NCBI RefSeq assembly: GCF_017876815.1
Contig: NZ_JAGIOS010000002.1
Location: 1,200,001-1,232,000, forward strand
DNA length: 32,000 nucleotides
DNA from: Sinorhizobium meliloti
GTDB taxonomy: Bacteria; Pseudomonadota; Alphaproteobacteria; Rhizobiales; Rhizobiaceae
Direction: 5' to 3'
Shown: in pieces, positions 25,474-27,167 of the stretch
Layout of the letters: every line of letters begins with the position of its first letter
How positions within the stretch are numbered: position 1 is the stretch's first letter
Position numbers and translations under genes: made by a program
Notes under the pieces: model-generated
What the model was told of the DNA's origin: nothing
The model's database searches: none
Seen by the model: the letters and a program-made list of their open reading frames with translations, nothing else

Positions 25474-25992
25474 ATGCACGGAGCCGAGAACCAGCCCACG
25501 GAAGCCGCTTTCGAGCCCTTGCTCCACTTCGAGATGGAGATGGGTGCCTTTCTTTCCGATTGGAATCATTGCGATCAGCTGTCGACCTTCATGGCGCGAA
25601 TGATAAGTCACAATCGCACTGATCCTGTTCGCCACTCGAATTTCTTCTCGTCCGCATTGAACGAGCTCCTCGAGGTCTCGTTCCGCAGCGGCTCGCCCGA
25701 CGGCCGGATCGGTTGTGCAGTTTATCGATGGGGGCCGACCGAACGGGTGGAGCTTACTTTCCCGTGTCCGCCCGGTCAGAGGCAGTTTTATAGAGAGGCG
25801 GTGTCGAAGACCCGCGACGCCGACGCCCATGCGCGCTACCTTGATTCCATCTCCACCGATCTCGCACCGAGTCGCGAGGCTGTTCTTCTGGACTTGTCGA
25901 TCAATTTCGATGCCGACGTGCGGCTCGACGAAAGCGATCCGCCATCGATCAGGCTTGTCGTGGATCTGCCTCTTGAAGGAGTGGTGAGGTGA
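25474..25992 (+). CDS. degenerate GHKL/RsbW-SiaB-like protein (predicted pseudokinase), paralog of the 29529-30092 product
   Basis: The ATG at 25474 follows GGGAGGAAG. It aligns along its length with the downstream kinase (SDWNHCDQLSTFMARM vs [16 protein letters not shown]; NELLEVSF vs [10 protein letters not shown]; LLDLSINFDADVRL vs [15 protein letters not shown]). It lacks the N-box Asn (V68) and the Gly-rich lid. Confidence 0.7.
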   Translation: MHGAENQPTEAAFEPLLHFEMEMGAFLSDWNHCDQLSTFMARMISHNRTDPVRHSNFFSSALNELLEVSFRSGSPDGRIGCAVYRWGPTERVELTFPCPPGQRQFYREAVSKTRDADAHARYLDSISTDLAPSREAVLLDLSINFDADVRLDESDPPSIRLVVDLPLEGVVR

Positions 25993-27167
25993 GTACGACA
26001 GCGTTTGCAGTTCCCTTCAAGGCGGAATTCGACCCGAACAGCCAGGAGTTCGCTCTTTCCGGGGTGGTGCGGCCGCGCTCGGCCGACGAGATCGCCGCAA
26101 GCATATCGATGCTCAAAGGCGCAATCGAAGAGGTGCGGGGCGTTCTCTACATCAACGTCAAGCGCCTGGTGCAGATGAACAACACGGCCTATCACGCCTT
26201 CGCGCGCGTTCTTCTCGATGCCTGTCGCACGCGGTCGGACATTCGCTTCGTCGTCGTGACCTCGAGCGTCGTGGGCTGGACCGAGCGCATGTTCGCCCAT
26301 TTGAACAAGATCGAGCCGCAAGTGACCGTCGAGGTCTACGACTCGAAGTTCTATCCCGGGCAGAGCTTCGTGGAAAACACGAGCTTCATCCCGATCCTGC
26401 GCACGCAAACGAAAATGACCTGGCGCCACGAGCGCAAGATGCTCCCGCGTCACGGACTGCGCCCGGGTATGACGATGGCAGACATATGTTGTGGCATCGG
26501 CGACTTCGCCATGCTGGTGCGGAAGGAGTTCCAGCCGGCACGCATCGTCGCGCTCGACCATTCCAAGGCGAGCCTCGCCTATGCGCGCGACGTGGCGTCC
26601 GGCTTCGGCGTAACGGATATCGAATATACCTATGGCGATGCCTCCGAGATGCTGCTCGAGGACAATCAGTTCGATTTCGTCACCTGCCGCCATTCGCTGC
26701 AGATCTTCAACCAGCCGGATGTGCTCCTGAAGGAACTCTTCCGGATCTGCAAGCCCGGCGGTCGGGTCTACATAACCAACGAGAAAAATTCCCACTGTCT
26801 CGGCGAACCGCGCGCACAGAGCATTCAATGGACCTACTACGAGGTCGCGAGGCTGTTCAGCCATTTCGAAATGGATGTGGAGTTCGGACCGAAGAGCAAG
26901 CGCTATCTTGTCGACGCCGGCTTTGACGATATCAACGTTGAATCGTTCATGGTCACCAATCTCGACGGAGATCCTCAGGACTTCGCCGATATCATCGCTG
27001 CCTGGGAGAACGTCTATGCCGGTGAAATGGCCGTAAAGCGCGGCGACCCGCCCGAGTTCATCGAACGTTTCCGGCAGGGTTTCCGGGACCACATTTTTGC
27101 CGCCCTCCATCCCAAGGGTTATGCCGGCTGGCCGATCTGGGCGGCCTCAGGGCGCAAGCCGCTATGA
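25989..27167 (+). CDS. fusion protein: N-terminal STAS/SiaC(DUF1987)-like domain plus C-terminal class-I SAM-dependent methyltransferase
   Basis: The GTG at 25989 overlaps the upstream stop (GTGA) and follows GAAGGAG. The N-terminal roughly 115 aa align with the 30106-30444 product. The C-terminal part has MTase motif I (ADICCGIGDF) and the post-I and later motifs (ALDHS, FDFVTCRHSLQ, CKPGGRVYI). Confidence 0.78.
   Translation: MSTTAFAVPFKAEFDPNSQEFALSGVVRPRSADEIAASISMLKGAIEEVRGVLYINVKRLVQMNNTAYHAFARVLLDACRTRSDIRFVVVTSSVVGWTERMFAHLNKIEPQVTVEVYDSKFYPGQSFVENTSFIPILRTQTKMTWRHERKMLPRHGLRPGMTMADICCGIGDFAMLVRKEFQPARIVALDHSKASLAYARDVASGFGVTDIEYTYGDASEMLLEDNQFDFVTCRHSLQIFNQPDVLLKELFRICKPGGRVYITNEKNSHCLGEPRAQSIQWTYYEVARLFSHFEMDVEFGPKSKRYLVDAGFDDINVESFMVTNLDGDPQDFADIIAAWENVYAGEMAVKRGDPPEFIERFRQGFRDHIFAALHPKGYAGWPIWAASGRKPL

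Follow-up and report, generated by a model that had tools for sequence, protein, structure and literature searches.

Partner switches, built from a PP2C phosphatase, a kinase and a STAS phosphoprotein, control sigma factors. They are also known to control diguanylate cyclases (PMC8457831) and, in a recent case, a glycosyltransferase (bioRxiv 10.64898/2026.04.08.717354). For Sinorhizobium meliloti, three sources (PMC8457831, PMC13438883, bioRxiv 10.1101/674879) describe BgrSTUWV as a partner-switching system in which the phosphorylation of BgrV is controlled by BgrU and BgrW. According to the same sources, BgrV acts through the diguanylate cyclase BgrR on the synthesis of mixed-linkage beta-glucan, which is derepressed upon deletion of bgrV, and the operon is attributed to Baena et al. 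2019 (Environ Microbiol 21:3379). Here, we describe a stretch of 32,000 nucleotides of S. meliloti DNA (hereafter, the window), in which six co-directional genes are found between positions 23705 and 30444 of the plus strand. In order, they code for a GGDEF-EAL protein, a degenerate kinase paralogue (B2), a STAS-like domain fused to a methyltransferase, a dCache-HAMP-PP2C protein, a kinase-like protein (B1) and a free STAS-like protein (C1). The fusion is the subject of the present work.

The window is part of a pSymB-type megaplasmid, with 100% identity to SM11, Rm41 and other strains, and the fusion gene is 98% identical to that of strain 1021. The species, the replicon type, the gene order (GGDEF first; PP2C, kinase and STAS last) and the domain content agree with those of bgrRSTUWV. 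Because order and content match, the locus is very probably this operon and the fusion protein very probably BgrT. The first gene of the hexacistronic bgrRSTUWV on pSymB, bgrR, is probably SMb20447; the tags SMb20447-20450 were absent from the searchable literature. The accessible literature covers R, U, W and V only. In it, neither BgrT as a STAS-like fusion nor BgrS as a degenerate kinase paralogue is described, and the original paper on the operon, which was outside that search, may note them. The analysis reported below leads to the conclusion that the locus is a partner-switching cassette whose second pair is degenerate and carries a fused methyltransferase, and that its operon is already known in part.

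Domain organization of the fusion protein

The fusion gene (25989-27167, plus strand) starts with a GTG codon and codes for 392 residues, in agreement with the PGAP coding sequence in CP050561. Residues ~10-116 form a STAS/SiaC-like domain, a homologue of C1 (the free protein of the slr1659 type), and residues ~120-392 a class I S-adenosylmethionine (SAM) methyltransferase with intact SAM motifs. At the DNA level, the two parts correspond to 25989-26342 (residues 1-118) and 26343-27167 (residues 119-392), respectively. This is the composition that a previous model reading of the DNA, made without database searches (the sequence-only reading), had proposed.

Pairwise BLASTP between the N-terminal domain and C1 gave no significant match (E 14), so profile methods were required to establish their homology. 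Residues 10-113 spanned the whole NCBIfam model of the slr1659 superfamily, NF047705 (E 5.5e-8; 36.9 bits). When the profile of 17 N-terminal domains was compared by hhalign with that of 16 C1 proteins, the two families were aligned over 113 columns with a probability of 99.5% and an E value of 1.7e-22, and the alignment of the N-terminal residues with the free protein given in the sequence-only reading was recovered. The score against NF047705 was nevertheless under the curated cut-off (36.9 vs 100 bits) and the motif FLNSSGI was lacking. Given this score and the missing motif on the one hand, and the clear hhalign homology on the other, the domain is considered as a diverged paralogue and not as a member of the superfamily by the NCBI threshold.

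The full-length AlphaFold model had a mean predicted local distance difference test score (pLDDT) of 90.9 and a predicted template modelling (TM) score of 0.82; the N-terminal domain alone reached a pLDDT of 90.1. Its topology, beta-beta-alpha-beta-beta-alpha-beta-alpha-beta, is that of a STAS/SpoIIAA-like fold, as the sequence-only reading had required. In a Foldseek search of the PDB with this domain, the top matches were the SiaC entries 7e6g, 6kko, 6k4f and 6kkp (TM 0.57-0.65). These were followed by STAS antagonists, including 3t6o, 4xs5, SpoIIAA (1tid), RsbV (6m36) and MlaB, with TM values of 0.5-0.65 overall.

The Pfam models STAS (PF01740) and STAS_2 did not match the fusion protein, and 4 of 26 N-terminal domains of the family gave weak matches below threshold. 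Membership of the SiaC family (DUF1987, PF09345) was rejected: the fusion protein had no Pfam match, only 3/26 members had a weak one, and the motif is N-N-T. A sequence search of the PDB found nothing for the N-terminal domain and generic methyltransferase matches only. With the N-terminal domain alone, a word-indexed homologue search returned 15 proteins, mostly truncated and uninformative on architecture. One homologue is annotated by the JGI as 'UbiE / MlaB component'.

The phospho-acceptor position

In SpoIIAA, the acceptor motif is D-S58-S-G. The phosphosite of SiaC is T68, within N67-T68-S69 at the N-terminus of helix alpha2 (PMC8457831), as correctly stated in the sequence-only reading. 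In the hhalign alignment, N64-N65-T66-A67 of the fusion (26178-26189) is placed opposite N60-S61-S62-G63 of C1. These residues, in the loop and the beginning of helix alpha2, correspond to the D/N-S-S-G phospho-loop of STAS proteins. Thr66, which the sequence-only reading had placed in the SSG phospho-loop, is found where helix alpha2 (residues 65-81) makes its first turn, and hence indeed in the phospho-loop region. However, it aligns with the second Ser of the C1 NSSG motif, equivalent to S69 of SiaC, and is one residue off the canonical acceptor. The canonical position itself (S58 of SpoIIAA, T68 of SiaC, S61 of C1) is occupied by Asn65, and not by a phosphorylatable Ser or Thr.

The acceptor position was then surveyed in 238 full-length members of the family (118 rhizobial protein clusters and 120 distant proteins). 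The motif of the rhizobial clade is N-N-T-A; T66 is present in 116 of the 118 clusters, and in the rhizobial genomes L007 and L076 its place is taken by Ile or Ala. In the distant clade the motif is N-A-x-G. There, position 65 is Ala in 109/120 proteins and Ser or Thr in only 9/120, and position 66 is Glu (34), Ala (31), Thr (11), Leu (9), Arg (9) or Ser (8), with Ser and Thr amounting to 19/120. N64 and A/G67 are conserved; the family as a whole shows no conservation at positions 65 and 66. Since position 65 is Asn or Ala and position 66 is variable, the family has no common phospho-acceptor and, as judged from these alignments, the N-terminal domain of the fusion has lost the canonical one. 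The phospho-switch at Thr66 proposed earlier is therefore not upheld: the acceptor position is Asn or Ala, T66 is conserved in the rhizobial clade only, and the upstream partner is degenerate (see below).

Another pair of hydroxyl residues, Ser92-Ser93 (26262-26267), was noticed in the same domain. Ser92 is located in the beta4-alpha3 loop and is kept in both clades (TSS in rhizobia, ASG or ASS in distant members). In the corresponding region, the free C1 protein has an invariant Gly one position earlier and no conserved Ser. A structural role is conceivable for Ser92, as is use as another site of modification.

The upstream partner

The gene upstream of the fusion codes for B2, probably BgrS (25474-25992, plus strand, 172 residues). 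Its ATG at 25474 is preceded by the ribosome-binding site AAGGGAGGA, and its stop codon overlaps the GTG start of the fusion gene in the sequence GTGA. The B2 and B1 families were related by hhalign with a probability of 99.1% (E 1.5e-18). Against NF047703, the NCBIfam model of the slr1658 superfamily, B2 obtained 28.6 bits (E 8e-7) for a cut-off of 100, which does not qualify it as an slr1658/GHKL kinase. In B2, the Asn of the N-box is replaced by V, A, Y, T or M (NELIEN becoming NELLEV) and the GSGLG G-box is absent, in 17/17 aligned sequences. Because both elements are lost, BgrS/B2 is probably a pseudokinase, that is, a catalytically degenerate paralogue of the slr1658-type kinase-like protein.

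A BgrS-like gene was found immediately 5' of the fusion gene in 86/86 loci, consisting of 80 rhizobial loci and six distant contigs (see below). Since B1 and C1 are intact whereas B2 and the N-terminal domain of the fusion are degenerate, the cassette is considered to contain two pairs. By its motifs, the second pair is a pseudokinase together with a non-phosphorylatable antagonist paralogue fused to a methyltransferase.

GenBank and PGAP records name B2 'ubiquinone biosynthesis methyltransferase UbiE'; no methyltransferase domain was found in it with Pfam.

The methyltransferase domain

The four motifs listed in the sequence-only reading are all present: DICCGIGD (motif I) at residues 165-172 (26481-26504), VALDHS at 187-192, FDFVTCRHSLQ at 228-238 and KPGGRVYITNE at 255-265. 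The Pfam families Methyltransf_11 and Methyltransf_25 matched residues 165-262 with 67 and 66 bits for cut-offs of 21 and 27 (E ~2e-18), and Methyltransf_31 was likewise above its cut-off. In a cross-phylum alignment of 42 sequences, D165, C168, G169, G171, D190-H191, D217-A218, F228-D229 and P256-G257-G258 were invariant or nearly so. Among rhizobia, no other part of the cassette is as well conserved as the methyltransferase, which also has a helical lid. In Aminobacter and Mesorhizobium, whose loci are more divergent, its identity was 72-83%, for 58-68% in the N-terminal domain and 48-59% in BgrS.

The PDB sequence search with the methyltransferase gave matches to PMT and 3mgg. By Foldseek, as suggested in the sequence-only reading, 3mgg was retrieved with a TM of 0.84 (normalised to the target), and the structural neighbours were small-molecule or peptide methyltransferases: 3mgg, phosphoethanolamine N-methyltransferases, LahSB, RebM, GtmA/TmtA and TleD. 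The domain thus looks active, and from its motifs and fold we infer a catalytically competent enzyme of the small-molecule or peptide type.

The UbiE/MenG annotation was rejected, the best score being 64.8 bits for a cut-off of 216 (NF001244) and that against TIGR01934 63.5 for 158. Neither the fusion protein nor the upstream B2 is UbiE, and the database annotation is corrected in this respect.

Stand-alone relatives of ~270 residues also exist for this methyltransferase. Their neighbourhoods were searched for a clue to the substrate; three full-length loci only were available and nothing conclusive was found. In one of them (L089, 1968-6813), a relative 72% identical to P0147 lies divergently beside a 1344-residue protein composed of Ser/Thr kinase, cyclase, AAA_16 and TPR domains, which is another signalling context with a cyclase domain. 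The other loci were uninformative.

Occurrence of the fusion and its cassette in other genomes

Genome loci were collected with an alignment of five sequences as query, and the best 80 of 288 genome hits, counted at the species level, were examined. As all of these were from Rhizobiaceae or Phyllobacteriaceae, the taxonomic breadth was drawn from metagenome proteins. Both halves of the fusion were contiguous and in frame in 80/80 rhizobial genomes, and all close homologues had 388-396 residues. Together with the distant full-length relatives described below, these results led us to reject a frameshift or an assembly artefact as the origin of the fusion, which had been named as a possible refutation in the sequence-only reading. 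The gene order from B2 to C1 was kept in 80/80 rhizobial genomes, and the GGDEF-EAL gene was directly upstream in 79/80. In the remaining locus (L033), which is one of two cassette copies in Ensifer aridi LMR001 (the other being L004), a GGDEF-EAL match was found on the opposite strand and further off (6226-7797). The cyclase gene of this copy may be missing or rearranged.

An exhaustive search of 1.8 billion cluster representatives returned full-length relatives down to 33% identity, as well as the stand-alone methyltransferases mentioned above. A profile of the distant members added more than 100 further proteins of ~390 residues. The named distant members are from Chloroflexota (Anaerolineae, Roseiflexaceae, Ardenticatenaceae, Caldilineaceae, Oscillochloris, Viridilinea) and from a metagenome-assembled genome of Spirochaetales, the fusion identity being 33-37%. 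The search for architecture and taxonomic spread called for earlier was thus carried out, with Rhizobiaceae, Phyllobacteriaceae, Chloroflexota and one Spirochaetales genome as a result.

Six distant contigs (Chloroflexota, Spirochaetales and metagenome) carried the core genes of the cassette. In four of the six, the full order was found, namely B2-like, STAS-methyltransferase, dCache/HAMP/SpoIIE, B1-like and C1-like. Among the others, one contig ends after B1 and one short contig has no PP2C gene between the fusion and B1. In L084, a gene of the PDDEXK_2 nuclease family (9231-9790) and an open reading frame of 48 codons are inserted between the STAS-methyltransferase and the PP2C genes. Where the contigs extend far enough, the place of GGDEF-EAL is taken by a class III nucleotide cyclase of the adenylate/guanylate type (PF00211; L082, L083, L084, L087) or by a GAF protein (L085). 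As the cyclase outside rhizobia is of another type, the nucleotide second messenger under the control of the cassette seems to differ between phyla.

Possible modes of action of the fusion protein

The reading that we favour, and to which we give about an even chance, is that BgrS and the STAS-like domain of BgrT would be a binding-only copy of the BgrW-BgrV pair, that the methyltransferase would be gated by sequestration, and that the cyclase would be the main output. BgrT would then be an accessory subunit of a PP2C/kinase/STAS partner-switching cassette. Its N-terminal domain, as a diverged paralogue of a BgrV-like STAS phosphoprotein paired with the translationally coupled BgrS, would bind the latter as a copy of the kinase-antagonist pair, and no phosphorylation would be involved. 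The loss of the ATP-binding N-box Asn and of the G-box in B2 points to binding and not to phosphorylation. The methyltransferase tethered in this way to the switch would be controlled by sequestration and partner exchange, and not by phosphorylation of Thr66. The main output would stay the adjacent nucleotide cyclase, BgrR (making cyclic di-GMP) in rhizobia and class III cyclases elsewhere, and the methyltransferase would form a second, internal branch whose substrate is probably common to all hosts, either a component of the cassette or a universal metabolite.

This accessory place is suggested by the fact that BgrR is the characterised output and that a cyclase is kept beside the cassette across phyla. 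The link to partner switching made in the sequence-only reading is consequently retained as far as the placement in the gene cluster is concerned; methylation as the terminal output is not, since that role more probably belongs to BgrR. As for the claim of a new output type, no mention of a fusion between STAS and methyltransferase domains was found in the searchable literature, but a STAS-enzyme precedent exists in All4160 and the methyltransferase seems to be accessory.

Several points weigh against the favoured reading. Thr66 is almost invariant in the rhizobial clade, where a clade-specific phospho-switch may operate at this residue, and in the distant clade position 66 is most often Glu, which could act as a phosphomimic. 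Ser92, conserved in both clades, could serve as an alternative acceptor. Finally, the assignment of the locus to bgrRSTUWV, of the fusion to BgrT and of B2 to BgrS, although very probable, rests on gene order and content.

The proximity of an active-looking kinase and of a PP2C phosphatase in the same operon invites the opposite view, in which the N-terminal domain is a true phospho-receiver: the BgrW-like kinase would phosphorylate Thr66 and the PP2C would remove the phosphate, switching the fused methyltransferase on and off. All4160 provides a precedent of a STAS-enzyme fusion regulated by phosphorylation, Thr66 lies in the appropriate region on the first turn of helix alpha2 and is kept in almost all rhizobial clusters, and the Glu66 of 34/120 distant members could mimic the phosphorylated state. 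Nonetheless, Thr66 is shifted by one residue from the acceptors of SpoIIAA, SiaC and C1, whose position is Asn or Ala here; it is replaced by Ile or Ala in two rhizobial genomes and by residues other than Ser and Thr in most of the distant clade; and the dedicated upstream partner is, by its motifs, deficient in ATP binding. We regard this phospho-receiver as rather unlikely.

A non-phosphorylatable antagonist is expected to bind its kinase persistently, as follows from what is established for SpoIIAA/SpoIIAB, and in RsbR-type proteins a sensor domain is joined to a STAS domain. Both points would suit a fusion acting on the input side, where the methyltransferase fold would mainly sense SAM, S-adenosylhomocysteine or a substrate, and the STAS-like domain would titrate BgrW or BgrS as a decoy and so bias BgrV phosphorylation and the output of the cyclase. 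The stronger interaction of the All4160 S74A variant fits such persistent binding (bioRxiv 10.64898/2026.04.08.717354). The cyclase is moreover the variable element of the cassette, and the STAS-methyltransferase the constant one. Against this, the motifs of the catalytic fold, the conserved lid and the pocket are under strong purifying selection, in the best-conserved portion of the cassette, and such constraint suggests turnover and not simply binding. A role as input or decoy is possible but doubtful. It appears improbable, on the other hand, that the methyltransferase modifies a component of its own cassette (the dCache-HAMP-PP2C receptor, the STAS protein or the cyclase), to which the STAS-like domain and BgrS would recruit it in a state-dependent manner, as a CheR-like layer of feedback or adaptation. 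Very improbable, lastly, is that the N-terminal domain has no signalling role and only serves structure or oligomerisation in an ordinary metabolic methyltransferase, for quinones or lipids for example, whose gene would be a mere passenger of the operon. Databases do name the protein UbiE or 'class I SAM-dependent methyltransferase', and stand-alone relatives of the same subfamily exist. However, the scores for the UbiE/MenG equivalog are far under its cut-off, the N-terminal domain has its specific paralogue within the cassette, namely the STAS-like protein, and what is conserved across phyla includes the order of the cassette, the start/stop overlaps and the kinase paralogue that accompanies the fusion.

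If the BgrS-BgrT pair works by sequestration, as favoured here, it would show how a phospho-switch module can be duplicated and rewired into a binding-only branch, and this branch would link methylation or the SAM status to second-messenger synthesis. If instead the cassette methylates itself, a PP2C-based partner switch would gain a CheR-like methylation layer, shared by hosts as distant as Chloroflexota and rhizobia. Kept as it is in several phyla, the feature can be tested in S. meliloti, where the operon has existing genetics and an easy readout (Congo red, mixed-linkage beta-glucan).

Other genes of the locus

All genes of the cassette are on the plus strand. The first one (23705-25399) codes for a protein of 564 residues, probably the output diguanylate cyclase BgrR, with Pfam GGDEF (E 7e-45) and EAL (E 1e-72) domains. 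Its signature is AGDEF (RLAGDEFAV) and not GGDEF, and the EAL motif FEALLRW is intact. If BgrR is indeed this protein, a non-canonical signature beside an apparently intact EAL domain accounts for the cyclase activity that has been reported.

Downstream of the fusion gene, whose stop codon overlaps the next ATG in the sequence ATGA, a sensor phosphatase of 786 residues, probably BgrU, is encoded at 27164-29524 and contains dCache_1, HAMP and SpoIIE (E 4e-38) domains. With 127 bits for a cut-off of 700, it is far under the NCBIfam equivalog threshold of SiaA. The GHKL-type kinase-like protein B1, probably BgrW (29529-30092, 187 residues), is above the cut-off of NF047703 with 161 bits; its motifs NELxENxxK and GSGLG are invariant, and it gave weak profile matches to histidine-kinase ATP-binding domains. 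The last gene (30106-30444) codes for C1, a free STAS-like protein of 112 residues and probably BgrV, the phosphorylated antagonist. It obtained 134.8 bits against NF047705, above the cut-off, with a weak Pfam STAS match and weak profile matches to SpoIIAA and RsfB, and its FLNSSGI motif is invariant across phyla. This BgrU/W/V-like trio (27164-30444) thus combines a PP2C, a kinase with ATP-binding motifs and an antagonist with an acceptor Ser, as expected of a partner switch.

The cassette is flanked by genes of sugar-acid catabolism (20802-23429 and 30480-31388), seemingly unrelated to it: L-idonate 5-dehydrogenase, the mannonate dehydratase gene uxuA and a TRAP transporter upstream, and a SMP-30/gluconolactonase gene on the minus strand downstream.

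Comparison with known systems

Besides bgrRSTUWV itself, the SiaABCD system of Pseudomonas aeruginosa resembles the present locus by its PP2C (SiaA), its kinase (SiaB), its small STAS-related phosphoprotein (SiaC) and its diguanylate cyclase output. Among PDB folds, the N-terminal domain is closest to SiaC, whose N-T-S motif lies at the N-terminus of helix alpha2. Unlike the fusion, SiaC is a free protein which bears no enzyme domain, acts as an activator of SiaD and comes with no paralogous pseudokinase, and the equivalent of its T68 is Asn65 in the fusion. SpoIIAA/SpoIIAB and RsbV/RsbW share with the locus the STAS fold, the acceptor loop at the N-terminus of helix alpha2, the GHKL-type kinase partner and the PP2C. 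The differences are that no sigma factor is involved here, that the fused domain has no acceptor Ser and that its dedicated partner has no ATP-binding motifs.

All4160 of Anabaena (bioRxiv 10.64898/2026.04.08.717354), a STAS-Bac_transf protein, likewise has an N-terminal STAS domain joined to an enzyme in a PP2C/kinase scheme. It differs from the fusion in that its phosphorylatable Ser74 is kept and is modified by kinases in vitro, and in that the enzyme is a sugar transferase (STAS-glycosyltransferase). Finally, with respect to the slr1658 and slr1659 superfamilies (NF047703 and NF047705; Synechocystis Slr1658), the free pair at 29529-30444 is bona fide (161 and 135 bits). In contrast, BgrS and the N-terminal domain of the fusion are diverged copies of this pair, with 29-37 bits for a cut-off of 100 and without FLNSSGI or NELxEN and GSGLG, one of which is fused to a methyltransferase.

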